Assembly (NCBI GenBank): GCA_035293765.1
Contig: DATGMF010000079.1
Location: forward strand, 1 to 64,000
Length of the DNA: 64,000 bases
Direction of reading: 5' to 3'
Source: Ktedonosporobacter sp.
GTDB lineage: Bacteria; Chloroflexota; Ktedonobacteria; Ktedonobacterales; Ktedonobacteraceae
The position numbers and the translations under genes were made by a program. This document shows positions 7,600 to 55,564 of this stretch, in pieces (the stretch's first letter is position 1; the number at the start of each line of letters is the position of its first letter). The notes beneath the pieces were generated by a model. That model searched no databases. It had not been told where the DNA came from and worked only from the letters and a program-made list of their open reading frames with translations.

Positions 7600-8228
7600 A
7601 CCAGAAACTCTCTTTCTTCCAGTCAGGTCCTTTTTGGGGTCAACTGGCCTGTATTTTTATGTAATGGGTGGGCTGAACCAGACCCCCCTGATTCAAAAAG
7701 CACTCACCCATGAGCTGGAATCCTTTTCCCGCTGCTGAAGCGGGTTGACTTGCTGCCGTAAGGGTAAGCATTTGCTCGATTTCTCATCTGCTACAGCGCA
7801 AGCTAGCCTGAAATATGAATGAGTAAAGTTCATCAGGCCCGACTATATACATAGAAAGAGTGGCAGTCACAGCGTGCAACGCGATGCGCTGTGAACTGAT
7901 ATGAGCTTTTTTGATACTTTTTGTGATATTGCTATCGATTGGGATAATACCATAGGTCTCGCGCATAGCTACGGATCTGATTAAAAGTTGGTAGGAAAGT
8001 ACTAACTTTCGGTTAAGATATTCACACTCCCCAGGTGTTCTCCCGGGGCCGTTTGACAAAGAGCATGAAGGGTTGAAATGCCGTGAAACGATCAGGGCAA
8101 AACTGCGTGTAGGTTAAGGAATGTGGAAATATTTTGTTTCTGCGTCCAGAGATGCTTATATTTGAGATATACTGTTAGAAGAGGCTTTCCCGACATGTTC
8201 CCGGCAACCCAGTCTGAAAGGATAACTC

Positions 8229-17328: not shown

Positions 17329-17382
17329 AACACTGGATCCTTTCACTCTTCTAAATTTGGGAAACCGGCTCTCCTGAATTTG

Positions 17383-19120: not shown

Positions 19121-20980
19121 CTAAAAGGACGGGTTAGCGTTTTGGACCAGCGTATCAAACCCGGCCTGGAACCAGGCACCAGAGACCGGAGCGTTAGCCA
19201 TAGCCCCCGTCGGCAGGTTGTTGTTCAGCGGATCGCCGCCAAACGTCGGGTCGCACATGCGGTCGAAGCCCTTGCCCGTGGGATTCTGAGGCCCCGTTGG
19301 AATCAGCGAGCTTGAGCCATCAGATTCGCCAGGCGGCTTGATCCAGACGAACGCGGCAATATTAGGCATCGGATTCGCTTGTGGGCGAGCCCCGATGCCA
19401 CCAGGCTGGTTGCACCAGTTGCCGCGGCCAATGCGCTTGTCGATCCTGGTGGCGTTAACGAATGTGTTCAGATCCGTTGAGGTGCTCGGTCCTGTCGGGC
19501 GAGCGGAGCCTCCCCAACCGTTACGCGACGTGTCGATTAACATGCCAATGGTGCTCGGGAAGCCGGCGGCGATAAACGCATTGCGCATATCGGTGTCATA
19601 GGTGGCCTCGTCGATGTAGGTGTTCCACTGGTAGAAGGTGGCGGAGCGCACCGGCTGACCGTTGATCTGCTGATTGGCGGTCATGAACGGCTCGGTCGTC
19701 GGCGTATAGTTGGCGGTGTTGCTGATGAAGCCATCCACACTATTGACGCCGGCGGTCGTGCCCTTGATCGTGTTGCTGATCAGGGTCACAGCGGGCTGGA
19801 AGTTGCTGGTCCAGCCGAGCCAGCCGTCGTGGGCAATATCGACGTAGTTGTATACGTTCGGGATCGCGTGCAGCTTGTTCAGTGCGTATTGGACGCCCTG
19901 CACGTAAGCGCCGCTGGAGTTTGCCTCAGCGCACTTGGCGATATTCAGGTTGGTGACCAGGTTGGGCAGCGAGTCCGGCTCGATGATCGCGACGATGCGC
20001 AAATTGCTATATTTCGGCAGACTGAACGTGGCCGCAATCGGGTCGATATACTGTGATTTGTAGATCGACAGACCGTTATTGGCGACAGTTAGCTCGCCGT
20101 TAGACGCCAGGGCTGCGCAATCGCGGTCAGGCAGGTCGTAGATGACGAAAGTGATCACGACGGGCTGGCTGCCGGTGGCCTGGGACAGTGCCGCATCCAG
20201 GTGCCCTGCCAGGCTTCTGGCGTAGCCCGGACCGCCGCTGATCGCGCCCATGCTGTCGAGCCAGACGGCTGTCGAGTACTGAGCGACTTTGGCCTCCTGC
20301 GTCCCGAGTGTGCCTCCTACCGAAGCTGCGCCCGCTTTAACGTTCGCGGCCCAATCAGGGTTGATGTATCCCTGAGCGCCAACGTAAGGATTGGCAACGT
20401 GCGTGCCAGGCGGTGGCGGCGGGGTAGGTGTAGGCGTATTCGTCGGCGTCTGGGTAGGCGTGGGTGTATTCGTCTGAGTCGGAGTTGGCGTATTCGTTGG
20501 CGGCGGTGGCGTGCCATTACAGGCATTACCATTGATGGTAAAGCTTGTAGGTGCGGTATTGCTACCACTCCAGTTGGCGTTAAAGCCAGGAGGAGAGGTC
20601 ACCGTCGCGCCCGCCGCAACGGCTCCATTATAGGACAGGCTGGTGATCGTCACCGCTGCGCCATTTTGCGTAAAGTTGCCATTCCACAACTGCGTGATCG
20701 TCTGGCCGTTGGGGAACGAGAACTGCAAGCTCCAGCTCGTCCATGCTGAGGCGCTGGTATTTTGAATGGTGAAACTTGCCCCGAAGCCAGTGTTCCACTG
20801 GTTTGTTACTGTGTAGGTCACCACACAGGATGAATCTGCATGCGTAGCCGTAGCCTCTATGAACAAGCTGCTGATGAGCAAAGTCAGCACGCTCGCGAGC
20901 AAGACCAGACTTCGTAGCTTGTTTTTAGCGAGCAAACCTGGAAGTCTACTCTGTGAGATGCGACGCTTGATATCGCGCAT
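19121..20980 (-). CDS. GH6 cellulase (cellobiohydrolase/endoglucanase) with N-terminal CBM2 and Pro/Thr linker
   Basis: N-terminal CBM2 ([23 protein letters not shown]...[18 protein letters not shown]). PT-linker TPTPTQTNTPTPT. GH6 catalytic signature VIYDLPDRDCAA. RBS aaaggaggg precedes the Met at 20980; the track ORF is 5'-extended. Confidence 0.9.
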   Translation of the reverse strand: MRDIKRRISQSRLPGLLAKNKLRSLVLLASVLTLLISSLFIEATATHADSSCVVTYTVTNQWNTGFGASFTIQNTSASAWTSWSLQFSFPNGQTITQLWNGNFTQNGAAVTITSLSYNGAVAAGATVTSPPGFNANWSGSNTAPTSFTINGNACNGTPPPPTNTPTPTQTNTPTPTQTPTNTPTPTPPPPPGTHVANPYVGAQGYINPDWAANVKAGAASVGGTLGTQEAKVAQYSTAVWLDSMGAISGGPGYARSLAGHLDAALSQATGSQPVVITFVIYDLPDRDCAALASNGELTVANNGLSIYKSQYIDPIAATFSLPKYSNLRIVAIIEPDSLPNLVTNLNIAKCAEANSSGAYVQGVQYALNKLHAIPNVYNYVDIAHDGWLGWTSNFQPAVTLISNTIKGTTAGVNSVDGFISNTANYTPTTEPFMTANQQINGQPVRSATFYQWNTYIDEATYDTDMRNAFIAAGFPSTIGMLIDTSRNGWGGSARPTGPSTSTDLNTFVNATRIDKRIGRGNWCNQPGGIGARPQANPMPNIAAFVWIKPPGESDGSSSLIPTGPQNPTGKGFDRMCDPTFGGDPLNNNLPTGAMANAPVSGAWFQAGFDTLVQNANPSF

Positions 20981-21018
20981 TCTACCCTCCTTTGGGTGCA
21001 ACTAAGAAAAACGATGCT

Positions 21019-21176
21019 AGAAAGATACTTCCTCGCCGAGCGACAGAGCGGAGCTAGCTGTGCTAACAGCGTTGTCGCTCGGAATAGAAAGATACTTCCT
21101 TGCCGAGCGACACTCCCACGATGAGTCGGGGAGCTACAACGCTCAGTCGCTCGGCAAAGAAAGATCAGGAAGTACT
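21019..21176. repeat. three copies (2 direct, 1 inverted, plus a partial) of a ~27-bp element AGAAAGATACTTCC(T/C)(C/T)GCCGAGCGACA forming two GC-rich hairpins in the GH48-GH6 intergenic spacer
   Basis: Copies at 21019-21045 and 21086-21112; inverted copy at 21146-21176; partial inverted copy at 21071-21085. Arms ttgccgagcgac/gtcgctcggcaa pair across a 34-nt loop, starting 8 nt past the GH48 stop. Confidence 0.6.
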
Positions 21177-23687
21177 ACAGGACGAACCATTCAAAGTGAA
21201 TGCAGTAGGAGGTGAATTACTGCCACTCCAGTTGGCATTAAAGCCAGGAGGAGAGCTCAGCGTGGCCCCTGCCGGGATCGAGCCGTTGTAGGACAGGTTG
21301 GTAATCGTCACCTTCGCGCCATTTTGCGTAAAGTTGCCGTTCCACAGTTGCGTGATTGTCTGGCCGTTGGGGAAGCTAAATTGCAAGCTCCAGCCATTGA
21401 TCGCCGTCGTTCCGGTGTTGGTAATCGTGAAGCTGGCCCCGAAGCCGGTGTTCCACTGGTTCGTCACCGTGTAGATCACCTTACAAGTCGCGCTCGGGTT
21501 CGGAGTGGGACTTGGCGTCGGGCTCGGCGTGGGCGTAGGTGTTGATGTTTGTGTGGGCGTAGGTGTCGGTGTTGATGTCTGCGTGGGCGTGGGTGTAGGC
21601 GTCCCTCCTGATGGTGGGAACAGGATATCAACATCAGCCATTGCCATAGCGATATCGGCCTGAGCCCAGAAACGATGGTAGTTAAAGGTTGGCGCCGGAC
21701 CCCCATTCAGGTAGGCTTGCACCTTTGGAAAGGCGGGATCTGACGTATACTTGGGCCGCTCGGTAAGAAACGTCGTGGACGAATTGAGCGTCGCGCCCTG
21801 TGCATTGGTGCCTACCCAGTTCGCAGGAATAGAGACCGAGTCGTTGAACTGGTTATAGTCCTTGCGAGTTTCGGGGTTGGAGACGCCGATGCTGTCAGCA
21901 AAGTTGGCCCACATATCGGTCAGCAGTGTCTGAGCCAGGGTGCGCGACGTGGTGTCGCCAGATTTGGCGGCATAGTACAGCAGGGTCTTAGCCAGCGCAG
22001 CCGTGACGCCCACATCAGTAGTGGTGTCTACCACGGTCACATGCAGGCCCGCATTGTTCACCGAGGTCGTCCCGGCAGTCCAGTTCCCTCCCGGCTGACC
22101 GCTCCAGTTAAGGGTTGAGGGGATCGTGTAAGTGCCATTGGAGTTGACTGTCGTCTCTGACTTGGCCCAGGCGACCCATTTATCCAGGATCGACTTGGCC
22201 GTGGCATCGCCGGTCTCGAAGTAATACTCGGCAACCCGTTCCATTGACCATGCCTGGAAACCAAACCAGTTGTTGCTGGGCGGATCATGGTAGACCGGTT
22301 CGAAATCGTAGGCCATGCCGTAGAATGTGGGATCACCGGCAGGAGGCGTTCCATACTGTCCATTCCAACTATTGGTCGCGCCACCGGCGATGGCACCTTC
22401 AGCCGATTGCAGCCACTGATAGAACTGTAACATGCGTTGCAGGCTGGTGGCCCAGTCACCGGGAGCGGTTGGAGACTTGGGTTTGAGAGCGGGCACAGTG
22501 CTCAGCGCCCAGGCGGCCAGAGGGTTCTGGTAGCCCTGGTGGGCAGCGCTGGCACCGATACGCCAGGCCCAGCTACCGGCGGAAGGGAGCGCTCCGCCCC
22601 AGGCATAGTACCAGTCCAGCAAATAGGTTGAACTGTTTTTGCCGCTACCTGCCGGGCAACTCGTGCTTGTACAACCCATCGTCTTGAAGTATTTATCGTA
22701 GGTGCCATAGCGCAGATAGTCACCCATCTTCGATGCTTCGGCAACTTGAGATGCTATCGCGCTCCCCTGTCCTTGAGCAGTCGCCCAGGTATAGGCCCAA
22801 AAGGCTGCCTGGACCGTGCGCGCATCAGCATCAGGAGCATCGGTATAGCGCCACTGCTGCGAGTAGCCACCTCCTGAAGCCGAGGTGTTGAATAGCGTCA
22901 AAAAGCCGGTTCCATCGTTCCTGCCCCAGGTGAATGTCTCACATTCTGGTTGAACTACCGTCTTCCAGACCGACTCCGATGCGCCACGCTGGTACGAGTT
23001 GATGAAAGATGGCTTGGTCGTGCCATCCCCACAGTGACCGTAACCGTACCAGTTATCCGTGTCGAGCAGCCAGGGCATGCCAAAGATATCGGAAGTGCCG
23101 TAGGTCTGCTGGAGTTCGTTAGCCAGTGGATCTTGCCCCACCGACACAGATGTGGAGAGCTGGGTTGGATAATCGGTGATATTGGGTGACTCTGGCGCGT
23201 ACTGCGCGGGACTGCTGGGATTATAGCCGCTGTTGGTCGGCTGATCGGCGTGTGATGGAATCATATACTTATCCATCGTCGCCCAGGCGTTGATAAAGGG
23301 CTGCCAGTTCCCCGTCACCTGACCGTAGGTCGCCTCCAGCCAGATCCAGAAGCTGAACGTTTCTGACGTGGTTTCGTGGCCGTAGTCTGGCGCTTCTACT
23401 ATCAGGGTCTCCACTGAATGGTAGGGGATACCCAGAGGGCTAAAATACCCATTGGCCGGATTCTTGATCTCACCATAGAGAGTCAGGAAATGCTGGGTAT
23501 AGATGGATGTGGCATTTGCAGTTCGAGTAGCACTATGTGCTAGCGGAATACGTTGGCCTCCTAAAAATCCAGAGATCATCAGCGTCGTGACGATGATCCC
23601 CAGTAAAACATATTGAAAGATCCTCTTTGGAGTCACTCTAACCTCCTTTTTACACAATGCTAAACCCAGGTGGTATAGACCATCCAA
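21165..23687 (-). CDS. GH48 reducing-end cellobiohydrolase with C-terminal CBM2
   Basis: YFSPLGIPYHSVETLIVEAPDYGHETTSETFSFWIWLEATYG is the GH48 N-terminal signature (cf. Cel48/CelS). C-terminal PT-linker plus CBM2 ([25 protein letters not shown]...). Signal peptide present; TTG start. Confidence 0.9.
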   Translation of the reverse strand: MDGLYHLGLALCKKEVRVTPKRIFQYVLLGIIVTTLMISGFLGGQRIPLAHSATRTANATSIYTQHFLTLYGEIKNPANGYFSPLGIPYHSVETLIVEAPDYGHETTSETFSFWIWLEATYGQVTGNWQPFINAWATMDKYMIPSHADQPTNSGYNPSSPAQYAPESPNITDYPTQLSTSVSVGQDPLANELQQTYGTSDIFGMPWLLDTDNWYGYGHCGDGTTKPSFINSYQRGASESVWKTVVQPECETFTWGRNDGTGFLTLFNTSASGGGYSQQWRYTDAPDADARTVQAAFWAYTWATAQGQGSAIASQVAEASKMGDYLRYGTYDKYFKTMGCTSTSCPAGSGKNSSTYLLDWYYAWGGALPSAGSWAWRIGASAAHQGYQNPLAAWALSTVPALKPKSPTAPGDWATSLQRMLQFYQWLQSAEGAIAGGATNSWNGQYGTPPAGDPTFYGMAYDFEPVYHDPPSNNWFGFQAWSMERVAEYYFETGDATAKSILDKWVAWAKSETTVNSNGTYTIPSTLNWSGQPGGNWTAGTTSVNNAGLHVTVVDTTTDVGVTAALAKTLLYYAAKSGDTTSRTLAQTLLTDMWANFADSIGVSNPETRKDYNQFNDSVSIPANWVGTNAQGATLNSSTTFLTERPKYTSDPAFPKVQAYLNGGPAPTFNYHRFWAQADIAMAMADVDILFPPSGGTPTPTPTQTSTPTPTPTQTSTPTPTPSPTPSPTPNPSATCKVIYTVTNQWNTGFGASFTITNTGTTAINGWSLQFSFPNGQTITQLWNGNFTQNGAKVTITNLSYNGSIPAGATLSSPPGFNANWSGSNSPPTAFTLNGSSCSTS

Positions 23688-23837: not shown

Positions 23838-23972
23838 TAATCGTAATCGTTTACGTGAACGTTTACATTAACGGGTAAGTAATGGTAAGATACGTGATGA
23901 ACTGGTTTTGATTGTAGTGTAGCTAATCATTTTTCTGCATACAACGACATCCACTAGACACACTATGGACAG
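23838..23972. promoter_or_regulatory. ~135-bp conserved upstream module (promoter + 5'-UTR operator candidates) of the GH48 gene; paralogous copy at 35455-35590
   Basis: Aligns with 35455-35590 at the same distance (~150-285 nt) from the respective start codons. Shared blocks: gtaatcgtt(t/c)acg..aacgtttaca, ctggttttg..tgtagtgtagctaatc, cactagacacact(a/g)tggacag. In gene orientation it gives TTGTAT-17-TACACT. Confidence 0.5.
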
Positions 23973-24080: not shown

Positions 24081-25262
24081 ATGACACCGAATCGTCGTTT
24101 GAAACAGGCACGCGAACTACGAGGTTGGTCGCAGGCTAAAGTGGCGGAACAGCTTGGCACCGATGCTACCACAGTCAGCCGCTGGGAACGAGGTCTGTTT
24201 TCCCCCACCCCTTATTTTCGCGAGAAACTCTGCGCGCTCTTCGGCAAAAACGCTGCCGAATTAGGGCTGCTGGAAGGCGCAAACCAATCACAAGAGAGCA
24301 ATGGGAACGACTCCTCCCTACGCTCGTCTGCTTCCCTCCTCTTTCAAGCAGGTATAGAATGGCAGGCAAAGGAACTGCATGCAGGAAAAATCACTTCTCC
24401 CGTACCACCTTCCTGGCCGAAACGTACAGACACTTTCACCTACATTCTACAAAGTGCTACATACGATCAACAGGCTCATTTGCTGTGGGGAGAGGCATAT
24501 GTGCGAGCGTTGCAGGGGCAACACAAAGAAGCGCAACTGCTGGGCGAGGCCAGTCTGAGCGCGTTTGAAAGCGTCAATCATTTGAATGCGACAGCTATTC
24601 GTGAGTGGCTTGACCAGCGGGGGCTGGTCCCGCCCACGCCTCCTCCACCCAGTGGAGCCCCACCTCTGCCTGTGCTGCCAGAACAGCGCAAACGCGCTCC
24701 CAGCCAGATTTTGCGCGCAGGGGGCGTTAGCTTTGCTCTCATCCTGATCGTTATCGCATCACTTCTGCTCCCCGGCTTTTCTTTCAATCAGTTCCGCCTA
24801 CCAGCTCTGACCTCGTCAACGGCTCATGCTTTGTCTTCTATGAAGCAAGAGACACCGATGAGGCCGCTCACAGGAGTTGCCAGCATTGCCACTCCAACGC
24901 CCGTCATCGTTGCCACACCTACGCCTATGATCTCTCCTGCTCTGACGCCGCCGACCCCCTCTGCTCTGACGGCTGAGATTTCGCCGGCCAATTTAACGCC
25001 GCAGGATTGTATCCTGGAGGCGCTCGGCTATCGCTGTACACTGACGCTCTGGTTATATGGCAGCGGCCAGGGGCTATTTACCTGGGAGGCTAGCAGCTCA
25101 TTGGCGGCGCAATTCAATGCTAGCAAGGGAACCAGTATGCCAGGGCAGCCATCACAGGTAATTGTTTATATCAGAAGTTCTCCTGGTGAGAAAGGCCAGC
25201 TTATTTTTACTTTTACCTCGTCTGCGGATACATGTACGAAATCCGTCACCTGGCAGGGCTGA
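24081..25262 (+). CDS. membrane-anchored XRE-family HTH regulator with Pro-rich linker, one TM helix and ~170-aa extracytoplasmic C-terminal domain
   Basis: HTH: MTPNRRLKQARELRGWSQAKVAEQLGTDATTVSRWERG. TM: GVSFALILIVIASLLLPGFSF. Lies divergent from GH48 and upstream of GH9. Confidence 0.7.
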   Translation: MTPNRRLKQARELRGWSQAKVAEQLGTDATTVSRWERGLFSPTPYFREKLCALFGKNAAELGLLEGANQSQESNGNDSSLRSSASLLFQAGIEWQAKELHAGKITSPVPPSWPKRTDTFTYILQSATYDQQAHLLWGEAYVRALQGQHKEAQLLGEASLSAFESVNHLNATAIREWLDQRGLVPPTPPPPSGAPPLPVLPEQRKRAPSQILRAGGVSFALILIVIASLLLPGFSFNQFRLPALTSSTAHALSSMKQETPMRPLTGVASIATPTPVIVATPTPMISPALTPPTPSALTAEISPANLTPQDCILEALGYRCTLTLWLYGSGQGLFTWEASSSLAAQFNASKGTSMPGQPSQVIVYIRSSPGEKGQLIFTFTSSADTCTKSVTWQG

Positions 25263-25305
25263 ACCACCCCTGCCGGGTAATGCTGCTGACCATGTGCTTA
25301 GTAAC

Positions 25306-25351
25306 TGTCTAGTGTGTGTTCTTGTATCTGGATTATCATGCTAGGTACAGT
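25306..25351 (+). promoter_or_regulatory. candidate GH9 promoter sharing the TGTCTAGTGTGTG upstream box and TTGTAT -35 with the GH48 / GH-A modules
   Basis: tgtctagtgtgtg (25306-25318), TTGTAT (25322-25327), 18-nt spacer, TACAGT (25346-25351); ~80 nt upstream of the GH9 ATG. Confidence 0.4.
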
Positions 25352-25432: not shown

Positions 25433-27892
25433 ATGATGCCGGTCAAGAAGCTCGGTACACACAGGTTGAAGCAACCATCTACCATCCTGCTGCTACCTCT
25501 GCTCTGCATGATTCTGCTGGCGACTGTTCTCATAAGCCCGCTACGCTCAGCGATTGTCCATGCCAGCCCAACGTTTAACTACGGGGAGGCATTGCAGAAG
25601 GCCATATACTTTTATGAAGAGCAGAGTTCTGGCCCTAAACCATCCTGGAACCGTGTGCCCTGGATCGGCAACTCAGCCATGAACGACGGCTCAGACGTTG
25701 GCCTTGATCTGACCGGTGGCTGGTATGACGCCGGGGACCACGTCAAATTTGGCTTGCCGATGGCCTGGTCTGTCACTATGCTCGGTTGGGGCGTCATTGC
25801 GAACCGCGACGCCTATGTGCAGGATGGTCAACTGCAGTATATCTTGAATAATATCAAATGGGCCACCGATTACTTCATCAAAGCGCATCCCTCTCCCGAT
25901 GTATTGTACGGACAGGTTGGTGACCCTAATGCGGATCACTCCTTCTGGGGACCGGCAGAGGTGATGCAGATGGCCCGTCCCGCTTACAAGATCGACGAGA
26001 GTTGTCCAGGCTCCGATCTGGCAGGGGAGACGGCTGCCGCAATGGCCTCGGCCTCGATGGTTTTCCAACCGACAGATCCAACGTACGCGAGTACCCTCCT
26101 CACTCATGCCAAGCAGCTCTACTCATTTGCCGACAATTTCCGTGGCAAGTACGACTCCTGTATTACCGCAGCCAGTGGCTTCTACACCTCATTCAGTGGC
26201 TATAACGACGAACTGGTCTGGGGAGCCATCTGGCTCTATCTGGCAACCGGTGATACTGCGTATCTGACCAAAGCTGAGAATTATTACGTCAATCTCAGCA
26301 ATCAGCCGCAGACGAATATCAAATCCTACCAGTGGACGATTAGCTGGGATGATCAATCTTATGGCTGCTATATTTTGCTGGCTGAGATCACCGGCCTACA
26401 GCAGTACAAGGATGACGCTCAGCGTTTCCTCGATTGGTGGACGGTTGGAGTAAACGGGCAGAAAGTCAGCTACTCGCCTGGAGGGGAGGCTTTTCTCAGC
26501 CCGTGGGGCTCGCTACGCTACGCGGCCAATACGGCCTTCTTAGCCCTGAATTATGCCGACTATCTGGGCACGAGCAACCCGCTGTACTCGCGCTATCATG
26601 ATTTTGCTGTGCAGCAGATCAACTACATCCTGGGGGCGAATCCGCGCAATTGCAGCTACATGGTCGGCTTCGGCTCCTGCTATCCTCAGACGCCGCACCA
26701 TCGCACCTCGCATGGTTCCTGGGATAATAACATCACGGACCCGGTCTATCAGCGTCATATCCTCTACGGGGCAATGGTGGGCGGACCCAGTTCTGCCGAC
26801 GACTCCTTTACCGACAATCGCCAGACGTTCCAGACCAACGAGCCTGCCGACGATTATAACGCGGCTCTTACAGGTGCATTAGCACGCCTGTACAAAGAGT
26901 TTGGCGGTAGCCCGGCGGCTTCGCTGCCGGACAAGGCCAAAGACGACGATGAAATTTACGCCATGGCCGCCGTCAATGCTTCGGGGACGAACTTCACGGA
27001 GATCAAGGCCATCTTCGTCAACAAGACCGGCTGGCCTGCTCGCGTCACCAGCAATCTCTCTCTGAACTACTACTTCACGCTGGAGCCGGGAGTGACGCCG
27101 AGCATGCTTACGTTGAACACGAATTATACCGAGTGTGGCAGCCACCTCTCCGGGCCAACGCAGTTCTCTGGCAACATCTACTACATCACGGTGAGCTGCG
27201 CTGGTACCCTCATTTATCCAGGTGGGCAAAGCAATTTCCAGAAGCAGGTGCAGTTCCGCATTACCAGCTCGGGCGCCTGGGACCCTACCAACGACTGGTC
27301 CTACCAGGGGGTAGCCACGCCGGCAGGTGCGCAACCGGTCAAAGTGACGAATATGCCCGTTTTTGATGGCAGTACGCAGGTCTGGGGCGCGACGCCTGGC
27401 AGTACCGGACCCACGCCGACGCCAACTCCTGGTGTGACCCCAACGGTCACGCCAACGCAAACGCCAGTGCCTACTCCAAATCCAACACCAGGCCCGACGC
27501 CGAGTCCGACGCCCATGCCAACTCCAACGCCGAACCCGACGCCAAGTCCGACGCCCACCCCAGGCGCGAGCTGCAAGGTGGTCTACACGGTGACGAATCA
27601 GTGGTCCACCGGCTTTGGGGCGAGCTTCACGATCACCAACACGGGCACGACGGCGATTAATGGCTGGAGCCTGCAATTCAGCTTCGCCAACGGGCAGACC
27701 ATCACGCAGTTATGGGGCGGTAACTTCACGCAGACAGGAGCGAAGGTGACCATTACCAATCTCTCCTATAACGGCGCAATCCCGGCGGGGGCGACGCTCA
27801 GTTCCCCTCCTGGCTTCAACGCCTCCTGGAGCGGCACCAATGCGCCTCCAACCGCGTTCACCCTGAACGGAGCATCTTGTAGTACTTCCTGA
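25433..27892 (+). CDS. GH9 processive endoglucanase with CBM3c, PT linker and C-terminal CBM2 (Cel9A/E4-like architecture)
   Basis: GH9 signature [25 protein letters not shown]3c-like block [45 protein letters not shown] linker [37 protein letters not shown]2 [25 protein letters not shown].... RBS gggga precedes ATGATG at 25433. Confidence 0.9.
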
Positions 27893-28256: not shown

Positions 28257-29204
28257 TTGCTTGCACGAAATGCAAATGGCAGCCACTATGCTACTCGTTT
28301 ACGCGTCCTGTTGTTACTGGCGATCTTGCTTTTCCCCCTGCTTGTAAGCTGTGGTGCAGATTCTCAGAATACTCCTCTGTCCGATAAGCCAACTATGCAA
28401 GCCGGACAGGTCTCCGCGACGCAGCCTGTGCCAACCTCCGCACCTCTGTCACCCACCTCAACTGCACAGCCATCAATCCTGCAAGGGCCGACAAATTTTC
28501 TCCTCACCCCCCCTCTCGCCTTTTCCAGTGCGAGCGGAGCTACTATGGACAATAACGGGGCGATCACTCCACTGGACGCGAATACGATAAAAACACAGAT
28601 TACTGCGGAACTGAAACGCCTCCTTTTTGTGGTAGACAGCCATAATGGCGTCAAAGTCTACAGCCCGGGAACATCACCGGTCACAGCCCAGGTAACACAC
28701 AATGCCGACGGCAGCATAGCTATCAACTATCAACAGACGGTAGACTCTGAAGCGGGGTCTGTAGCCATCACATTCGATGGGGTGCTGCTCAAGCAGCAAA
28801 TAACCGTGACCTATGATCAACAATATTCGCCTTCAATACTCATTAATGCCAATGCCAGCGAGGTAACGGTTGCCCTGACCGCGGCTGTGCGCTGGGTATC
28901 AGCAAACCAGATACCCGCCGCACCGGGGAACGGGAGCTATCGGCTCACGAGTAGCGGTGGCATTGCTCTCGCCTGGTCGGCGGGCCAGAATGCTGCCGCG
29001 TATAATGTCTATCGTCTGATCTCTGACCGCGATCAGCAGTTTCAGCTCCTGGCTACGGTAAAAGCTACCGCATATACCGACAACTCAGCCGCCGCCGCAC
29101 AATATGTCAACTCCCCAAAGGGCATCACCTACGCGGTCTTCTCCATTGGGCCAACCAATGTCGAAAATCCCGGGGGGATGGTTATAGTTGTGGCGACACA
29201 GTAG
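28257..29204 (+). CDS. hypothetical lipoprotein (lipobox LVSC) with Ser/Thr/Pro-rich linker
   Basis: MLARNANGSHYATRLRVLLLLAILLFPLLVSCGADSQN.... TTG start preceded by RBS aaaggaga; no recognisable catalytic domain. Confidence 0.55.
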   Translation: MLARNANGSHYATRLRVLLLLAILLFPLLVSCGADSQNTPLSDKPTMQAGQVSATQPVPTSAPLSPTSTAQPSILQGPTNFLLTPPLAFSSASGATMDNNGAITPLDANTIKTQITAELKRLLFVVDSHNGVKVYSPGTSPVTAQVTHNADGSIAINYQQTVDSEAGSVAITFDGVLLKQQITVTYDQQYSPSILINANASEVTVALTAAVRWVSANQIPAAPGNGSYRLTSSGGIALAWSAGQNAAAYNVYRLISDRDQQFQLLATVKATAYTDNSAAAAQYVNSPKGITYAVFSIGPTNVENPGGMVIVVATQ

Positions 29205-29293: not shown

Positions 29294-30787
29294 TCAGGAA
29301 AGCTGCCAGATGCTGACTGTGTTCTGCAAGAGCTCCTTCTGACCCAGTTCAGCAGAAATGTTGGTCGTAGTGGCAAGCATTGTGCTGTCCGGTGACCAGG
29401 CCAGTGTCGGAATAAAAGCAGGCTTACTGGTCTTGCCAAAGGTCGCAACAATCTTTTGTGCTTTCACATCCCAGATGTGGATAGCGCTGCCGCTCTCAGC
29501 CAGATATTTCCCATTTGGTGACCAGGCCAGCGAGCCAATAACCTTTGCCCAGGTATCGCTATCTTTAAAGGATGCGGTGAGTTGACCGCTTGCAACCGAC
29601 CAGATTTGCACCTCGGGAGTATCAGGTAAGCCCAGTGCAAGAAAAGCTCCATCCGGTGACCAGGCCAGTGCGCTCACGCTCACCAGATTAGCAGGCTGGT
29701 GGTAAGCAATGCTGTTGACCAGGTTACCACTCGCAATATTCCAGATCTCCACGCCGCCATTTACCGTCTGTACAGCGACATACTTCCCATCGGGGGAGAT
29801 GGGTAACATGCCAACATTCTGACCCAGAAGCTTTTTACCAGGACTCAATGTGATCGTCGTGCGAATGAGCGCTCCGGTGCTGGCATTCCATATCTGCATG
29901 AGTATAGGGCTAGCGGTGCCCGATGCTGCGAAGTTACCGGCCTTCGGCGTGAATGTCTGGACGGCAGAAATTATTGTTTCATTGGATAACCATGCTGACT
30001 GCTCAATAGCATTGTTATGCCCATTCCCTTGAAAGCTGGCGATGACACGTCCAGTGGTGGCATCGAGCACTTCTGCTTCGTATGCCCCGGTCAGCACTAA
30101 CAGGCGTTTCCCATCTGGTGACCAGGCAGCCTGCTGCGCATACGGTAATAAGTTTGCGGATTTGGTTGCACAGTTTTGTGCGGATACCGTTTTGAGATTA
30201 TAATAGGTCACGGCAAGCTGGCCGGTAGGAGACCAGTCCAGCGTGGGCTGGTGCAGAAACGGATAGCCGGTCCCGTTATCTGAGAAACTACATAATAGCA
30301 TCCCGGAGCTCAATGCTTTTTGCACTGTACCCGTCTGCGTTGTCGGCTTGTTATGAGTAGTCGATTGCCGCAACGAGGAAGAGAGCAGTACCCAGCTCAC
30401 GATGATGATCAAAACGGCTGCTACAGCCACAGCAGTGCTTAATATATTGCGGAGAGCGTGACGAGAGCGCCTCGTAGACCATGAATCGGAAGTCGAGAAT
30501 CTCGTTCCCTGCGAAGTATCTTCTTGCATTGTTTTTCCTTTTCTCAAAAACTGCTCGCCTTCAGGTGACTTGTGCCGTGCCTCCTGAAGCAGAGCAGGAT
30601 GCCCCTGACTCTGAACAAAGCGATTCCATATTCGCTCCAAAGACTGCTCGTTTTCTCGGGCATAGGTCTGGGAACTCGCATACAAAGCCTGGATCAAGCG
30701 GCGCTCGTCCCGTGAAAGATCTTGTGACCAGCGTTTAGTCTGTGCATCTATTGCCTCTGGGGTAAAGCCGTTCTCATGTTCTTTCAT
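29294..30787 (-). CDS. anti-sigma-factor-like membrane protein with extracytoplasmic WD40/PD40 beta-propeller
   Basis: 125-aa cytoplasmic N-domain, TM helix AVAVAAVLIIIVSWVLL, then repeated AWSPDG / LAWSPNGKYLA / LAWSPDSTML propeller blades. Overlaps the upstream ECF sigma gene by 4 nt. Confidence 0.7.
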   Translation of the reverse strand: MKEHENGFTPEAIDAQTKRWSQDLSRDERRLIQALYASSQTYARENEQSLERIWNRFVQSQGHPALLQEARHKSPEGEQFLRKGKTMQEDTSQGTRFSTSDSWSTRRSRHALRNILSTAVAVAAVLIIIVSWVLLSSSLRQSTTHNKPTTQTGTVQKALSSGMLLCSFSDNGTGYPFLHQPTLDWSPTGQLAVTYYNLKTVSAQNCATKSANLLPYAQQAAWSPDGKRLLVLTGAYEAEVLDATTGRVIASFQGNGHNNAIEQSAWLSNETIISAVQTFTPKAGNFAASGTASPILMQIWNASTGALIRTTITLSPGKKLLGQNVGMLPISPDGKYVAVQTVNGGVEIWNIASGNLVNSIAYHQPANLVSVSALAWSPDGAFLALGLPDTPEVQIWSVASGQLTASFKDSDTWAKVIGSLAWSPNGKYLAESGSAIHIWDVKAQKIVATFGKTSKPAFIPTLAWSPDSTMLATTTNISAELGQKELLQNTVSIWQLS

Positions 30788-31332
30788 CGTTTCTCACCTT
30801 TTTCCCAGTCTTTGTAGAACCTCCGCAGGCTCTGGAGTGTACGGAACAGGATCATCCGTACTGCTCCCGCGCTTTTTTCGACAGCAGGGGCTATTTCCTC
30901 ACATTTCAGGCCATGGCCAAACCGCAAGCGCAACACCTCTTGCTGAAGTTCTGGCAGGGCTCGTATCGTGCTAGAAAGCCAGATGAACTCTTCGCGTTGA
31001 AGACTGATCTGCTCTGGAGCCTGGTGCTCGTCTTCACAAAATGACTCGGAGAGCCATTCTATGGGAACGTATGGGTGACGAATGGAACGCCGGTAGTAAT
31101 CCACAACTTTGTTGCGAGTAATGGTCCAGAGCCAGGCCTCTTGCTTTTTCGCATCGAAGGTCGGAAACCGTTTGTTCTGTAAAACAGAGAGAAAGACCTC
31201 TAGCACAATATCTTCAGCGTCTTCGCGTGATGCAGTTTGCTGATAGACATAGGCGAAAAGGCTCGAAGCATAATGGCGGTAGAGTTCCGCATAGAGTGAG
31301 TGCTCCAAAAGTTCAGCTTCCTTGTGTTGCAT
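30784..31332 (-). CDS. ECF-type RNA polymerase sigma-70 factor
   Basis: Region 2 YRHYASSLFAYVYQQTASREDAEDIVLEVFLSV and region 4 LPELQQEVLRLRFGHGLKCEEIAPAVEKSAGAVRMILFRTLQSLRRF. Confidence 0.85.
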   Translation of the reverse strand: MQHKEAELLEHSLYAELYRHYASSLFAYVYQQTASREDAEDIVLEVFLSVLQNKRFPTFDAKKQEAWLWTITRNKVVDYYRRSIRHPYVPIEWLSESFCEDEHQAPEQISLQREEFIWLSSTIRALPELQQEVLRLRFGHGLKCEEIAPAVEKSAGAVRMILFRTLQSLRRFYKDWEKGEKR

Positions 31333-31551: not shown

Positions 31552-33087
31552 TTACGATGTACTACAGGCCGCTCCATTGAGCGTGAAGGCGGTGGGCACC
31601 GTGTTGCTGCCACTCCAGTTGGCATTAAAGCCTGGAGGCGAGCTCAGCGTCGCTCCCGCCGGAATAGAGCCGTTATAGGACAGGTTGGTGATCGTTACCG
31701 TTGCGCCACTTTGCGTAAAATTCCCATTCCACAGTTGCGTGATCGTCTGCCCATTGGCGAAGCTAAAGCGCAAAGTCCAGCCGTTGATCGCCGTCGTGCC
31801 CGTGTTGGTGATCGTGAAGCTCGCCCCAAAGCCGGTATTCCACTGATTGGTGATCGTATACACCACTTTGCAGCTCGCGCCGCCGGTTGGGGTCGGTGTC
31901 GGGCTTGGGGTAGAGGTGGGAGTTGCTGTTGGCGTATTCGTGGGCGTGTTTGTCGGTGTGGGCGTAGGCGTGCCGCCACCACCTAGAGAAAGAAGGTGGG
32001 CTTTATACCCTGCCCCATAGTTCGTGGGAGTGCCGGTATAGTCGGCAAGCAGCGACGGCGTGCCGCCGCAATTCCCCGTCACCGTCCAGGTCCAGGCCAT
32101 GTAGCCGGTGCTGTGCTGATCGAGCCAGGTCGTGAGCGTATTAATAAAGCCTGAGGCACAGTCATTCTCGCCGATCTCGCCAGCCAGAACGGGCACCTGT
32201 GCGATTACCGGCGCGATTTGTGAGTCCCAACAACTTGTATTAGAACAGGCATTAAAGTTGTAGATATGCGTCGAGGCCGCCAGATTGTTCTGCGGATCGC
32301 TAGGCTTGTTTGCCAGCCATTGCGAGAGATCATTGGAGAAGGCCAGTCCTCCCAGCATCAGTACGTTGGTCGCACCGGTCGCACGGACCGTATTGACCAG
32401 CGTTTGCATCCCCGCCACAGCGAAACCAACGCCTGAGCATGCGCCGGACTGGGGAGCCGTGCTGCCGTTGAGCCAGCAGGACCAGCTCACGTCGTGCGGC
32501 TCATTGTACAGATCGAAGATCACCGAAGAGTTGCTCTTAAATGTATTGGCAACCGAGGTCCAGAAGGCGGGAGCGTGATCCAGGTCTGGCATCATCTGCT
32601 GACCGGTGGACTGATTGGTACCGGAATTATTCCAGTGCAAATCCAGGATCACGATCTGGCCGTTGGCGTTTAGTAAATTCACCCAGTTGACAATATCTGA
32701 CTGATACTGGGCCGCGGTTTTGTTGTTGGCGGGAAATCCATTGATACCAAGCCAGCAGTCTTCGTTCAGGGGGACACGGACGATATTGGTGCCCCAGGCG
32801 ACCATAGCACTGACAGTAGCCTGATCAATTGGCCCATCAAAGTCGGTGGGAGCGTTGGTCGCGCTCTTGGTACACTGGTATTCTGTGCCCATGCGATCAA
32901 CGCCGTGAGGCACAATGACATGACCACTGCCATCCTCAAGTTTATTGCCAACGACGTGCAGCCCCGTCGGCACGCTGGCTGCTTTGACCGAGCCTGGCGG
33001 TCGTGATGTGAAGATCATTGCCGCCGAGCAGAGAAGCAGAGCTACAACGGCGAGCATCAATAGTCGAAAGCGTTTTTTGCTTTGCAT
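31552..33087 (-). CDS. GH5 endoglucanase with C-terminal CBM2
   Basis: GH5 acid/base motif VIFDLYNEPHD; nucleophile region VLAGEIGENDC. PT-linker plus CBM2 ([25 protein letters not shown]...). Signal peptide present; RBS aaggagga. Confidence 0.9.
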   Translation of the reverse strand: MQSKKRFRLLMLAVVALLLCSAAMIFTSRPPGSVKAASVPTGLHVVGNKLEDGSGHVIVPHGVDRMGTEYQCTKSATNAPTDFDGPIDQATVSAMVAWGTNIVRVPLNEDCWLGINGFPANNKTAAQYQSDIVNWVNLLNANGQIVILDLHWNNSGTNQSTGQQMMPDLDHAPAFWTSVANTFKSNSSVIFDLYNEPHDVSWSCWLNGSTAPQSGACSGVGFAVAGMQTLVNTVRATGATNVLMLGGLAFSNDLSQWLANKPSDPQNNLAASTHIYNFNACSNTSCWDSQIAPVIAQVPVLAGEIGENDCASGFINTLTTWLDQHSTGYMAWTWTVTGNCGGTPSLLADYTGTPTNYGAGYKAHLLSLGGGGTPTPTPTNTPTNTPTATPTSTPSPTPTPTGGASCKVVYTITNQWNTGFGASFTITNTGTTAINGWTLRFSFANGQTITQLWNGNFTQSGATVTITNLSYNGSIPAGATLSSPPGFNANWSGSNTVPTAFTLNGAACSTS

Positions 33088-33316: not shown

Positions 33317-35314
33317 TCATGAGGTGCTGCATGCAGCACCGTTGAGCGTAAACGAGGTCGGGTTGAGATTGCTGCCGCTCCAGGAGGCGTTGAAGCCAGG
33401 GGGGGAGCTCAAAGTGGCTCCCGCCGGGATCGAGCCGTTATAGGACAGGTTGCTGATCGTCACCGCCGCGCCATTTTGCGTAAAATTGCCGTTCCACAAT
33501 TGCGTAATTGTTTGCCCATTGGCGAAACTAAATTGCAAATTCCAACCGTTAATTGCCGTTGTGCCCGTATTGGTGATCGCGAAGCTCGCGCCAAAGCCGG
33601 TGTTCCACTGATTCGTCACTGTATACACTACCTTGCAGCTCACTCCTGAAGGCGTCGGGCTGGGCGTCGGACTCGGCGTATTGGTAGGTGTCGCTGTGGG
33701 CGTATTGGTGGGCGTGGGTGTGGGCGTTCCTCCCGTGCCTGGCTGTAAAACAATCGTCGTGAGCGAATACGGTGCGATACTGATGCCGCTGAGCGAGCCC
33801 TGGGCTGAGCTGATTGAGTTGCTGCTCTGACCGTAGGTGTAAAGCGTCGCGTTGGCAGCCGCGCTGTAGCCATTGAGCGAGAGAGCCACCGTGTACGTGG
33901 TACCAGGATCTTTGTTGATCAAGAGCAGTGCCAGATTGCCATTGGCCTGCTTGACCGCGTGGACCGCTACCAGGCTTTGATTAGACGAGGAGGAGACCAT
34001 CGTATCCCCCGGGCCAAACAGGTGAGAGAGCATCTGCAAGCCATAATATGGTGGGAATGGGGTATCTGCTGGCGGCTCAGTGATGCCTCCAGACGAACTG
34101 CCATTGGATAAGACGCCCATATCCCCGTAGTTGGCCGTGCCATAGAGGCTGGAGCTATTGTCCCCGCTGGTCACGATGCCATTGTGCTCCGCCCACCAGT
34201 CCACGTTGAAGACGCCGTTTTCCAGCCAGGTCATATACGCGTCGGCCAGAAAGAGGCCATTGACCAGGCTGACCGTTTGCTTACCAGGAGGGAAGCCGCC
34301 GCCGTTCGAGTTCATTTCGGTCACGGCAATGCCGACCTGGCTGGCTCTGGAGCCAAGATATTGCCCATAGAGCGAGCGCAGCGTCGCGACCTTGCCGGCA
34401 ATTTCCGCCGGACTGCCGAGCAAGCCAGCGTCGCTGTAGTTGCCGCCAGAGGCGTAATCGGTGTACCAGTGAATGTCGCCGAAGTCTATAAAGGGGCCGG
34501 CGATAGAGAGCACGGTATGATTCCAGTCCATCGTATCGCCATCATTAGTATCAACGACCCCATCAGGCCAATCGCCAGGAGTCGTCAGCACCACACCAAC
34601 CTTGATGGTCGGGTCAACAGCTTTCATGGCCTGGATGATCTGTACAGCATTCTGAGCGTAGGCGGTGGCTCCCTTCTTCGAATGGATGTCATATTCCCAG
34701 TTGGCGGTATAACTGCCATTGCCGTAAACTTCGTTGCCAACCTCCCAGTATTTGATACCGTAGGTATGGCCTGTACTGCTGCCTCCTGTATAGGTGGGAA
34801 CCGGACCATTATAGCCAGGACCCCCTTTGTTAGCGTACTGCACCCAGTTGGCGGCTTCCTGCGCTGTGCCTGAGCCATAGTTCACGGTAACGATTGGCTG
34901 CGCATCGGACCCGACCGCCTGAACAGCGCCCATGAAGGCATCAAAGGTATTGCTGGGATTGGCAAAGCTCTGGCCCGGTACCGTTGTATTCGACTGCCAA
35001 TGGTAGACATCCGAGGTCGAGCCGCCGGGATAGCGTATGGTTTTGACGTTGGCGCTCTTGAGCAAGGTGGCCGCTGTAGCATCGAGCATATTCCCATTCC
35101 AGACGGCGGTATTGATGCCCTCGCTTGCAGTGGTGAAAGTGCCAAGCGACTGGCCGGCATTGATAGTGATCTGGGCGCTGGTGGCTGCGACCGCGTGCCC
35201 CAATGGGCTAAATAGCACGATGGAGAAGATCAAAATGCAACACATTGCCGCGCAAGCAATCACTGTGTTGCTCCTGGGGGACAGATACGAACTGACGAAC
35301 AACTTCCTTGTCAT
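33317..35314 (-). CDS. clan GH-A (beta/alpha)8 glycoside hydrolase (GH5/GH30/GH44/GH51-like; family unassigned) with C-terminal CBM2
   Basis: IRYPGGSTSDVYHWQ and GIKYWEVGNEVYG (acid/base NE motif) are typical of clan GH-A. C-terminal PT-linker plus CBM2 ([25 protein letters not shown]...). Confidence 0.8.
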   Translation of the reverse strand: MTRKLFVSSYLSPRSNTVIACAAMCCILIFSIVLFSPLGHAVAATSAQITINAGQSLGTFTTASEGINTAVWNGNMLDATAATLLKSANVKTIRYPGGSTSDVYHWQSNTTVPGQSFANPSNTFDAFMGAVQAVGSDAQPIVTVNYGSGTAQEAANWVQYANKGGPGYNGPVPTYTGGSSTGHTYGIKYWEVGNEVYGNGSYTANWEYDIHSKKGATAYAQNAVQIIQAMKAVDPTIKVGVVLTTPGDWPDGVVDTNDGDTMDWNHTVLSIAGPFIDFGDIHWYTDYASGGNYSDAGLLGSPAEIAGKVATLRSLYGQYLGSRASQVGIAVTEMNSNGGGFPPGKQTVSLVNGLFLADAYMTWLENGVFNVDWWAEHNGIVTSGDNSSSLYGTANYGDMGVLSNGSSSGGITEPPADTPFPPYYGLQMLSHLFGPGDTMVSSSSNQSLVAVHAVKQANGNLALLLINKDPGTTYTVALSLNGYSAAANATLYTYGQSSNSISSAQGSLSGISIAPYSLTTIVLQPGTGGTPTPTPTNTPTATPTNTPSPTPSPTPSGVSCKVVYTVTNQWNTGFGASFAITNTGTTAINGWNLQFSFANGQTITQLWNGNFTQNGAAVTISNLSYNGSIPAGATLSSPPGFNASWSGSNLNPTSFTLNGAACSTS

Positions 35315-35454: not shown

Positions 35455-35590
35455 ATGTAATCGTTCACGGTAACGTTTACAGTGAATGATAAAAACATGT
35501 AAGGTATCGAGCGGGCTGGTTTTGTCTGTAGTGTAGCTAATCTTTCGTTAACATACAATGACAGTCACTAGACACACTGTGGACAGAATG
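35455..35590. promoter_or_regulatory. paralogous copy of the conserved cellulase upstream module (see 23838-23972)
   Basis: Same blocks in the same order and at the same distance from the GH-A start codon. In gene orientation it gives TTGTAT-17-TACACT followed by a GTAAACGTTACCGTGAACG palindrome-like element. Confidence 0.5.
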
Positions 35591-36860: not shown

Positions 36861-37421
36861 TTGCAATCTAACCTGCGCAACCTACTGTATAAGTTGCGTA
36901 AGGCCCTGCCCGTGATTGATCACTTTCTCATTTTGCAAGAGGAGGAACAGGACCTTTCCGCGGCTATCGAGACTGCTCAACGGTTGCTGCGTTCCGACCC
37001 GCTTCAAGAGACAGCTTATAGCCATTTGATGCGCCTCTACGTAGCGCATGGGGACCGAGCTGCTGCGCTGCGTACCTATCACGCGTGTACCACTGTACTG
37101 GAACGCGAACTGAGTGTTGCGCCTGGCGTGGTAATCCGAGAGAGCTACGCGCGTTTGCTCCAGGCAGAAAAACGAGTAGCTCCTCCAAGAACTACACCGT
37201 CTACCAGGTTGAAAGGGAGAGCCCCTCTGGTCGGGCGCGAGTCGGAGTGGGCCCGGCTTCGGGTGTCCTGGCAACGTACACTGGCTGGTCGCTCGCACAT
37301 GGTCCTGCTCATCGGAGAAGCCGGCATGGGTAAAACCTATCTGGTCGAGGAACTGCAAGCCTGGGTGGAGCGGCAAGGGATAGCCACTGCTAGGCAATGG
37401 TGCATCTTTGAGCAAGCATAG
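36861..37421 (+). pseudogene. fragment of a SARP/AfsR-type regulator (BTAD domain + start of P-loop NTPase), lacking DNA-binding and C-terminal domains
   Basis: BTAD: AIETAQRLLRSDPLQETAYSHLMRLYVAHGDRAAALRTYHACTTVLERELSVAPG. P-loop: LVGRESEWARLRVSWQRTLAGRSHMVLLIGEAGMGKTYLVEEL. No wHTH upstream. The ORF stops after 186 aa, then the frame shifts into 37408-37902. Confidence 0.6.
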
Positions 37422-43067: not shown

Positions 43068-48265
<5,198 letters not shown>

Positions 48266-48266
<1 letters not shown>

Positions 48267-51235: not shown

Positions 51236-51389
51236 GGACCCGATTATATCGCGTCCGATTTATCGCCCGTCCCCGTTGGCGACCGGTCGGCAGCGAGCAG
51301 AAGTCGAAAAAGGAACGGGTTCGACAAGGGGAAAGGAGAGGCGATGGCGAGGGGGAGCGCTGAAGCGGACGCGATATAATCGGGTCGCT
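51236..51389. repeat. intergenic element with 27-bp near-perfect inverted repeats flanking ~108 nt (MITE-like or large RNA stem) between SNF2 and methyltransferase genes
   Basis: cgtagGgacccgattatatcgcgtccg (51232-51258) vs the reverse complement of 51367-51393 (cgtagCgacccgattatatcgcgtccg); 1 mismatch. Confidence 0.6.
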
Positions 51390-51469
51390 ACGAAGGCCCA
51401 AGGTCGCGTCGTTCCCAACCCATTGGCGTTCATCATCTTACATCACAACCTGGAAAAGGAAAAGTAGTC

Positions 51470-55468: not shown

Positions 55469-55564
55469 CAGTCTTTTTAGAAGGCGATGATGTGGGCATT
55501 CCCTCTGTGGCTGCTGTGATAGTCAGAGTATAATAGATGTGTCTATGGTAGAAAGGGATTGTGT

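Follow-up and report, generated by a model that had tools for sequence, protein, structure and literature searches.

The window analysed here, a 64-kb stretch of DNA, derives from an uncultured Ktedonobacteraceae bacterium, and the same DNA was found in soil metagenomes and in several MAG assemblies. It carries a cluster of cellulase genes on both strands. The GH9-CBM3-CBM2 endoglucanase gene (25433-27892, plus strand, ATG at 25433) encodes a product of 819 aa with the Pfam domains PF00759 (Glyco_hydro_9), CBM_3, and CBM_2. Between it and the GH48-CBM2 gene on the minus strand (21165-23636, GTG start at 23636, assigned by Pfam) lies a plus-strand gene for an XRE-family membrane protein (24081-25262, Pfam HTH_3). 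The GH6-CBM2 gene (19121-20980, minus strand) follows GH48 and has no repeat array of its own. A second minus-strand pair consists of the gene referred to as 'GH-A' (33317-35314) and the GH5-CBM2 gene that follows it (31552-33087). The profile search returned only CBM2 for 'GH-A', and its catalytic domain, called GH51-like here, matched GH51 arabinofuranosidases among PDB sequences (1e-13).

Three further genes lie between GH9 and GH5. The gene 3' of GH9 (28257-29204, plus strand) encodes a secreted or membrane protein with no Pfam family and a weak Fn3-like match; in a local blastp of the ORFs 3' of arrays, its homologues were found directly under a GH9-type array in three other genomes. A WD40 protein gene (29294-30787) and an ECF sigma factor gene (30784-31332) overlap inside the cluster on the minus strand (29294-31332). 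This pair is absent from the equivalent cluster in a MAG with a 97% identical GH9 and thus looks recently inserted. The spacer between GH48 and GH6 (20990-21170, minus strand) contains two copies of a hairpin unit of ~70 nt, GCCGAGCGAC...GTCGCTCGGC and then AAGGAAGTATCTTTCTA, with a fold of -84.4 kcal/mol (z = -8.4), and could be an intra-operon processing, attenuation, or stabilising element.

Upstream of GH9, the promoter letters given in the earlier note were borne out. TGTCTAGTGTGTG occupies 25306-25318 on the plus strand, TTGTAT follows at 25322-25327, and after a spacer of 18 nt the predicted -10 hexamer TACAGT is found at 25346-25351, so that the promoter ends 82 nt 5' of the GH9 ATG. 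On the minus strand, GH48 and 'GH-A' carry GTGTGTCTAGTG 5' of TTGTAT-17-TACACT, as had been claimed, with the predicted -10 hexamers TACACT at 23916-23921 and 35530-35535, respectively. The combination TTGTAT-N16-19-TACANT occurred three times in the window against 0.01 expected, and none of 100 shuffles reached three. Hexamers placed 16-18 nt apart and 5' of a gene characterise sigma-70-type promoters, and TTGTAT-18-TACAGT before GH9 has this arrangement. The -35 is always TTGTnn and matches TTGACA at three of six positions, and the predicted -10, TAcAnT, comes 17-18 nt after the -35 hexamer. A sigma-70 consensus scan made no call for these promoters because the -35 is too weak; from the hexamers and their spacing, we infer promoters of the sigma-70 type.

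The GH9 box had been described as a permuted version of the box before GH48 and 'GH-A'. The ungapped alignment TGTCTAGTGnnTGTnnTTGTAT instead places the three promoters collinear and in register; 18 of the 22 positions are shared by all three, and CTAG precedes TTGTAT by 9 nt in each. Their common layout is TGTCTAG-N4-TG-N3-TTGT, with the -10 element 19-20 nt further. The shared core, earlier given as CTAGAC/GTGTG, had to be redrawn as TGTCTAG plus phased TGYY units. GTGTG and CTAGAC were both rejected as the core since the flagged positions, including those of GTGTG in GH9, vary among orthologues. Short parts of the box were not enriched in the window when searched alone: GTGTCTAG gave two matches against 1.07 expected, which is not significant, and TGTCTAGTGTG with up to two mismatches gave nine against 10.8, which is at chance level. 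The claim that three cellulase promoters share an upstream element was upheld, and the element recurs before other cellulase and hemicellulase genes.

This recurrence was established across genomes. A search for TGTCTAG, made before any scan with the full pattern, recovered eight distinct promoters; TGTCTAG was identical in 8/8, and TAcAnT stood at a fixed distance in 8/8. The pattern TGTCTAG-N4-TGYY-N-TTGT-N19-20-TANANT was scanned over a collection with one genome per species (185,579 species, 596 Gb), and 64 stretches were returned. Twenty-five stretches, holding 33 matches, came from 17 Ktedonobacteraceae, Ktedonobacter, or Thermogemmatispora genomes (two Ktedonobacteria lineages). The remaining 39 stretches were single matches scattered over unrelated taxa, for which ~35 were expected by chance, as computed from the information content of the pattern for 596 Gb. 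Most of the 33 Ktedonobacteria matches precede CAZyme genes. The genes 3' of these matches encode GH9, GH48, GH51-like, GH5+CBM2, CBM3+GH5, and GH10+CBM2 enzymes, as well as Fn3-like homologues of the protein at 28257-29204 and a cupredoxin-like lipoprotein. The earlier note had named absence of the box from other cellulase promoters as the observation that would speak against it; the genome-collection scan looked for the box there and found it. A regulon motif is a shared cis element that recurs before related genes above chance, and this is what the box does, with the 39 matches elsewhere at chance level. The box is part of a conserved, lineage-specific array that probably marks a cellulase/hemicellulase regulon of Ktedonobacteraceae and Thermogemmatispora.

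The same distribution was seen in individual relatives, for which GH9 orthologues were fetched through the protein database. The box lies 5' of both GH9 and GH48 in the MAG with the 97% identical GH9 and in Ktedonobacter sp. SOSP1-52. In the closely related MAG SMAG_U10091, it precedes GH9, GH48, GH10, a GH51-like gene, and a small lipoprotein gene, and in Thermogemmatispora aurantia, it precedes only GH9 of the GH9/GH48 pair. Among the promoters of Ktedonobacter, Thermogemmatispora, and the MAGs, the repeat cores are fixed, and the -35/-10 spacer and flanks have diverged. The box was not found in the GH9 upstream regions of Tengunoibacter and two other Ktedonobacteria MAGs; the element thus does not cover the whole class. 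In the two MAGs lacking it, the best sigma-70-like candidate for GH9 was TTGACA-17-CATAAT, an unmapped consensus match ~250-330 nt before the start codon.

To describe the element by position, 33 non-redundant promoters were anchored on TGTCTAG and assembled into a position matrix. As the scan pattern had fixed TGTCTAG, TGYY at +11, TTGT, and TAnAnT, only the unforced columns provide independent evidence. TGYY was present at -11, 0, and +11 in 33/33 Ktedonobacteria promoters, and at the unforced position -11, the comparison was 33/33 against 0/39 chance matches. A further TGYY at -22 or -21 (unit 0) was found in 19 of 33 promoters and in none of the 39 chance matches, and C at the third position of the -10 in 26 of 33 and again none of 39. 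Unit 1 has A at -6 in 32/33, and the last four positions of unit 2 vary. Comparison of the matrix with itself gave a sharp peak at a shift of 11 (0.37 against a background of ~0.15; 0.76 for unit 1) and a second one at 22. The element is a set of three to four direct repeats of TGYYYA with a period of exactly 11 bp, of which the best-conserved copy is TGTCTAG; this spacing places the repeats on one face of the helix.

The repeats can be read directly in the window. Before GH9, the weak distal unit 0 (TGCTGACCATG, 25284-25294), unit 1 (TGCTTAGTAAC, 25295-25305), unit 2 (TGTCTAGTGTG, 25306-25316), and unit 3 (TGTTCTTGTAT, 25317-25327) follow each other on the plus strand; unit 2 holds the TGTCTAG core of the box first described, and unit 3 overlaps the weak -35 TTGTAT. 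The GH48 array comprises TGTCCATAGTG / TGTCTAGTGGA / TGTCGTTGTAT (23939-23971, minus strand), the last unit including the -35 TTGTAT, and the 'GH-A' array comprises TGTCCACAGTG / TGTCTAGTGAC / TGTCATTGTAT (35553-35585, minus strand). In general, the last unit, TGYYnTTGTnn, holds the -35, and TGYY-N-TTGT is conserved. No convincing dyad was detected in the self-similarity analysis, with no pairing of arms beyond the trivial CTAG palindrome. An inverted-repeat reading was rejected on this ground, and a LacI/CelR-type operator (a palindrome of 14-20 bp with a central CG) was rejected because the array is asymmetric.

When the -10 hexamer is taken as -12 to -7, the units start at ~-62, -51, and -40, and weakly at -73. 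The box had been proposed to be a class I activator site at about -45, which proved too narrow. A class I site is discrete, clear of the -35, and usually a dyad; the footprint here runs continuously from ~-62 (weakly -73) to -36 in 11-bp direct repeats and abuts TTGT. Tandem direct-repeat sites have at least two repeats with a period of 10-11 bp, as found here, and a footprint of this extent in repeats touching the -35 indicates a tandem array like those of OmpR/PhoB or lambda CI/CII.

The same spacings bear on whether an alternative sigma factor, for instance the ECF sigma factor encoded at 30784-31332, recognises the box as a promoter element. The presence of the ECF gene and its WD40 partner inside the cellulase cluster is in keeping with this idea, and Clostridium thermocellum employs SigI/RsgI pairs for its cellulosome genes. 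TGTCTAG, however, is located 33-34 nt 5' of the -10, a distance greater than that of a -35, and its separation from TTGTAT, only 9-10 nt, is smaller than that within a -35/-10 pair. Moreover, the -10 has the common form TAnAnT, and the relative with the 97% identical GH9 has no ECF/WD40 pair in this cluster. Readings of the box as a sigma-54 or ECF element, or of TGTCTAG as a -35, were rejected because of the unsuitable spacings and the lack of conservation of the ECF/WD40 pair; we regard an alternative-sigma element as scarcely credible.

The arrays fall into two types. GH9-type promoters have GTGCTTAGTAAC-TGTCTAG and a -10 of TACAGT or TAAAGT. GH48-type promoters have CTGTCCAYAGKG-TGTCTAG, a -10 of TACACT or TACAAT, and a leader that opens with a conserved sequence (ACAAAACCAG) and contains LacI-type operators ~40 nt from its beginning. 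The two types have only the phased cores in common. Two GH9-type arrays in relatives have other genes beside them. In Ktedonobacter robiniae, a gene for a 442-aa RRXRR/HNH endonuclease is found directly 3' of the GH9-type array (fetched-locus positions ~1200-2530), where it occupies the place of GH9 as in SOSP1-85, and this looks like insertion of a mobile element between the promoter and GH9. T. aurantia has a second GH9-type array (fetched-locus position 17361, plus strand; -35 TGGCAG, -10 TATAGT) 5' of a gene for a 295-aa protein without a Pfam family, 8 kb from the GH9 locus.

Part of the conservation reflects shared ancestry because many of the promoters are orthologous. This could be taken further, to a promoter cassette that was copied among cellulase genes and kept by common descent only, with no dedicated factor. 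GH48-type promoters do have ~150-200 bp in common, including the leader, and look like a copied module, and many of the matches are orthologous. Conservation is nevertheless position-specific: the cores are fixed, while the four variable positions in every unit have been randomised, as have the spacer from -35 to -10 and the flanking DNA. This holds both across genera, whose enzymes share only 71-86% identity, and across non-homologous genes. The phased cores are all that GH9-type and GH48-type arrays share, and the 11-bp TGYY phasing is not explained by descent alone. A cassette kept by descent only is hence highly improbable, and on this pattern of conserved letters, it is very likely that some protein binds the array.

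The GH48-type leaders carry a second regulatory element. LacI-type operator pairs are located in the leaders of GH48 (TGTAAACGTTCACGTAAACGATTACG, 23842-23867, minus strand) and 'GH-A' (35457-35481, minus strand), and in the GH48-type leaders of other genomes, they occur at the same distance (seven fetched loci). The GH9 leader lacks a LacI-type operator, and a search of the whole window against Rfam gave no family at threshold, that is, no known riboswitch or leader. LacI-family proteins known as CelR/CebR control actinobacterial cellulase genes through the 14-bp palindrome TGGGAGCGCTCCCA. The operators of the GH48-type leaders are probably a cellobiose-responsive repressor layer of this kind, and with them, these genes appear to be under dual control. 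The CelR/CebR sites and the array are alike in that a short element common to many cellulase promoters defines a regulon; the array differs in being non-palindromic, located upstream of the -35 rather than over the start or leader, and found in Chloroflexota, and the CelR/CebR role is probably played here by the separate leader palindrome. The bases just after the -10 (ACAnACAAAACCAG; 23900-23915 and 35514-35529, minus strand) are also conserved in GH48, GH51-like, GH10, and GH5 promoters of several genera, which suggests a further functional element at the transcript start. A degenerate GH48-type module (TGTCTAA) was found in Dictyobacter sp. S3.2.2.5 (fetched-locus positions 7600-7870, minus strand), divergent from the XRE orthologue. 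It reads TGCTCGCGCTA-TGTCTAAGTAA-GTACCATTGCG and retains TACAAT, the conserved leader, and the LacI-type operator; downstream of it come a 46-aa ORF and the gene of a formate/nitrite transporter, with no cellulase.

The XRE gene (24081-25262) is the only conserved regulator linkage beside the arrays in the fetched loci. In the window, its stop codon is 43 nt 5' of the TGTCTAG core of GH9 and 21 nt before the weak unit 0, and 121 nt separate its start from the GH48 array. In 14 fetched genomes, the XRE stop is 16-224 nt upstream of a GH9-type array, and the next gene is GH9 or one for a protein of the 28257-29204 type; in eight of those genomes, a GH48-type array is located 121-332 nt upstream of the XRE start on the other strand. 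Its product of 393 aa has an HTH_3 domain at residues 7-61 (Pfam), a conserved helical cytoplasmic segment, a hydrophobic span, a Pro/Thr-rich linker, and a C-terminal domain of 100 residues, in this order. The hydrophobic stretch GGVSFALILIVIASLLLPGF was seen in the translation and is conserved in the family alignment, and it was called transmembrane by inspection only. With this call, a DNA-binding domain and a transmembrane segment are combined in one polypeptide, as in transmembrane transcription regulators. The C-terminal 100 aa were modelled with a pLDDT of 94 as an Ig-like beta-sandwich of the PapD/MSP kind. A carbohydrate-binding module was considered for this domain and rejected, as the model matched only generic Ig-like/PapD/MSP sandwiches, including accessory domains of glycosidases; the modelled fold of the ectodomain names no ligand.

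The XRE family is small, with 165 proteins at E<=1e-5, and all of its named members belong to Ktedonobacteria. Residues 1-64, which include the HTH, are almost invariant among members that are 42-50% identical overall, and in the HTH, the closest paralogue observed shares only 34% identity. Searches of the HTH domain against PDB and NCBIfam gave only weak generic matches to XRE, SinR, and RstR proteins, the nearest PDB sequences being SinR (E about 0.004-0.009, marginal) and ICEBs1 Xre. The linkage has exceptions. In the four Ktedonobacter species, the XRE gene is missing from between the arrays, which stand back to back. K. robiniae has no XRE gene at this locus; its genome does contain a shortened family member whose HTH is the same, located elsewhere amid GH43, GH30, and pectinase genes. 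Cellulase genes do not adjoin the XRE orthologues of Dictyobacter, Reticulibacter, and K. robiniae. As a rule, proteins of the XRE family act as dimers that bind inverted repeats, and the link to an array without a convincing dyad is weakened accordingly. SinR of Bacillus subtilis, however, binds a 7-bp motif in both inverted and tandem direct arrangements, which is a precedent for the reading of direct repeats by an XRE protein. SinR is among the nearest solved sequences to the HTH of the candidate, and it differs in being a soluble repressor with a different motif. On gene order and the near-invariant HTH, the XRE protein is the best candidate for the binder of the array, an assignment that we make tentatively.

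Another reading is that the array is an activator site for an unlinked response regulator of the OmpR/PhoB family or a SARP-type protein and that the XRE protein does something else. Pho boxes are CTGTCAT-N4-CTGTCAT, and TGTC-N7-TGTC-N7-TGTC in units of 7+4 is the architecture of pho boxes and of other sites for winged-helix regulators. Like pho boxes and OmpR/PhoB sites, the array has TGTC-core direct repeats with an 11-bp period (a 7-bp unit and a 4-bp spacer) and adjoins a weak -35, as those sites adjoin or replace one to activate a coherent regulon. The 11-bp periodicity is objectively present, Ktedonobacter species retain arrays where the locus lacks the XRE gene, and BTAD (SARP-like) ORFs occur in the window at 36861-37421 and 60498-61481. 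These ORFs, however, are far away, and no response regulator or SARP gene is conserved beside the arrays in any fetched locus, where the XRE gene, between or beside the arrays, is the sole conserved regulator linkage. The array also ends ~21 nt before the -10, which is one helical turn further upstream than in pho boxes or SARP repeats, and it keeps a TTG -35 and has the core TGTCTAG. The regulon consists of plant-polysaccharide hydrolases. An unlinked winged-helix regulator is the main alternative binder, though we consider it rather unlikely.

With respect to the effect of binding, the consistently weak -35 and the position of the element wholly upstream of the -35 make an activator site the most economical reading, and the array probably activates transcription. 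The opposite effect would follow if the array were a repressor operator, on which a protein coats -62 to -36 and blocks RNA polymerase until an inducer arrives. The site does overlap the -35; most characterised XRE-family proteins (SinR, Xre, and Cro) are repressors, and the PDB sequences nearest to the candidate are two of these, SinR and ICEBs1 Xre. On the other hand, the -10 and the start site are clear of the element in every case, all copies have an intrinsically weak core promoter, which would be superfluous for a repressed promoter, and GH48-type promoters already have a dedicated LacI-type leader operator. An operator for repression is therefore improbable.

In the activator reading, a transcription factor would bind head-to-tail along the repeats from ~-62 to -36 and contact RNA polymerase, making up for the poor -35. 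The GH9, GH48(+GH6), GH51-like(+GH5), GH5, and GH10 genes would thereby be switched on together, with the GH48-type promoters additionally repressed through their leader operators. The candidate binder would be a transmembrane one-component regulator with an extracytoplasmic Ig-like domain. As a whole, a lineage-specific activator array that may be bound by the candidate XRE protein is a reading that we hold with some confidence. The most complete version, in which the Ktedonobacteria-restricted XRE regulator senses a cue of cellulose breakdown through its Ig-like ectodomain, polymerises on the TGTCTAG repeats, and directly activates the whole regulon, is conceivable and is put forward with considerable reserve.

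Known systems resemble parts of this scheme. Lambda CII reads direct repeats, TTGC-N6-TTGC, that straddle the -35, and lambda CI bound at OR2 activates PRM. Both are HTH proteins with the lambda-repressor/XRE fold whose activating sites touch the -35, as proposed for the candidate; in phage promoters, such sites consist of two repeats or of a dyad, with a period of 10 bp, whereas the array has three to four repeats with an 11-bp period in chromosomal CAZyme promoters. BcrR has an XRE-type HTH. Like ToxR, CadC, and BcrR, the candidate has its DNA-binding domain at the cytoplasmic N-terminus, spans the membrane once, and has a domain on the extracytoplasmic side; it differs in its small Ig-like sandwich as the sensor domain and in its putative target, a cellulase regulon. 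Transmembrane transcription regulators are a recognised class that includes these three proteins, BcrR being covered in a survey (PMC10269533). The SigI/RsgI system of C. thermocellum likewise relays the status of extracellular polysaccharides across the membrane to cellulase promoters. It does so with alternative sigma factors and with anti-sigma factors that carry CBM sensors. In the proposed system, by contrast, the promoters resemble those of sigma-70, and the HTH is part of the linked membrane protein.

The Ktedonobacteria are Chloroflexota that are abundant in soil, have been little studied, and possess large sets of cellulases resembling those of actinomycetes. Full-text literature searches on Ktedonobacteria (Ktedonobacter and Thermogemmatispora) turned up nothing on cellulase regulation or this motif, and searching for membrane-bound XRE regulators yielded nothing on the control of these cellulase genes. 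The array is a new, lineage-specific example of a familiar type of regulatory site. It provides a concrete definition of a cellulolytic regulon, with a motif that can be scanned for in genomes, a short list of enzymes predicted to be co-regulated, uncharacterised proteins among them, and a specific candidate for the regulator. Should the XRE protein prove to be the binder, it would be a tractable transmembrane transcription factor that couples the degradation of extracellular polymers to gene expression. If true, its circuit would be the first one known from Chloroflexota to regulate cellulases, and it would present an XRE-type transmembrane activator that reads direct repeats. In these organisms, inducible expression could also be driven from the motif and its weak core promoter.

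Several other genes were observed elsewhere in the window. A gene for a MerR-family regulator with B12-binding domains (a CarH-like light/B12 sensor; 3511-4656, minus strand) adjoins a CoA-transferase gene. BTAD-domain ORFs of the SARP/AfsR-like kind are both on the plus strand, and the one at 36861-37421, which also contains the start of an AAA_16 domain, looks truncated or frameshifted. Very large helicase-type genes at 43068-58198 (plus strand) have the look of a defence island; this block encodes a 1732-aa protein with DEAD and MrfA Zn-binding domains, an SNF2-related protein (1022 aa), an unannotated ORF of 1332 aa, and an AAA_11/AAA_12 helicase (879 aa).
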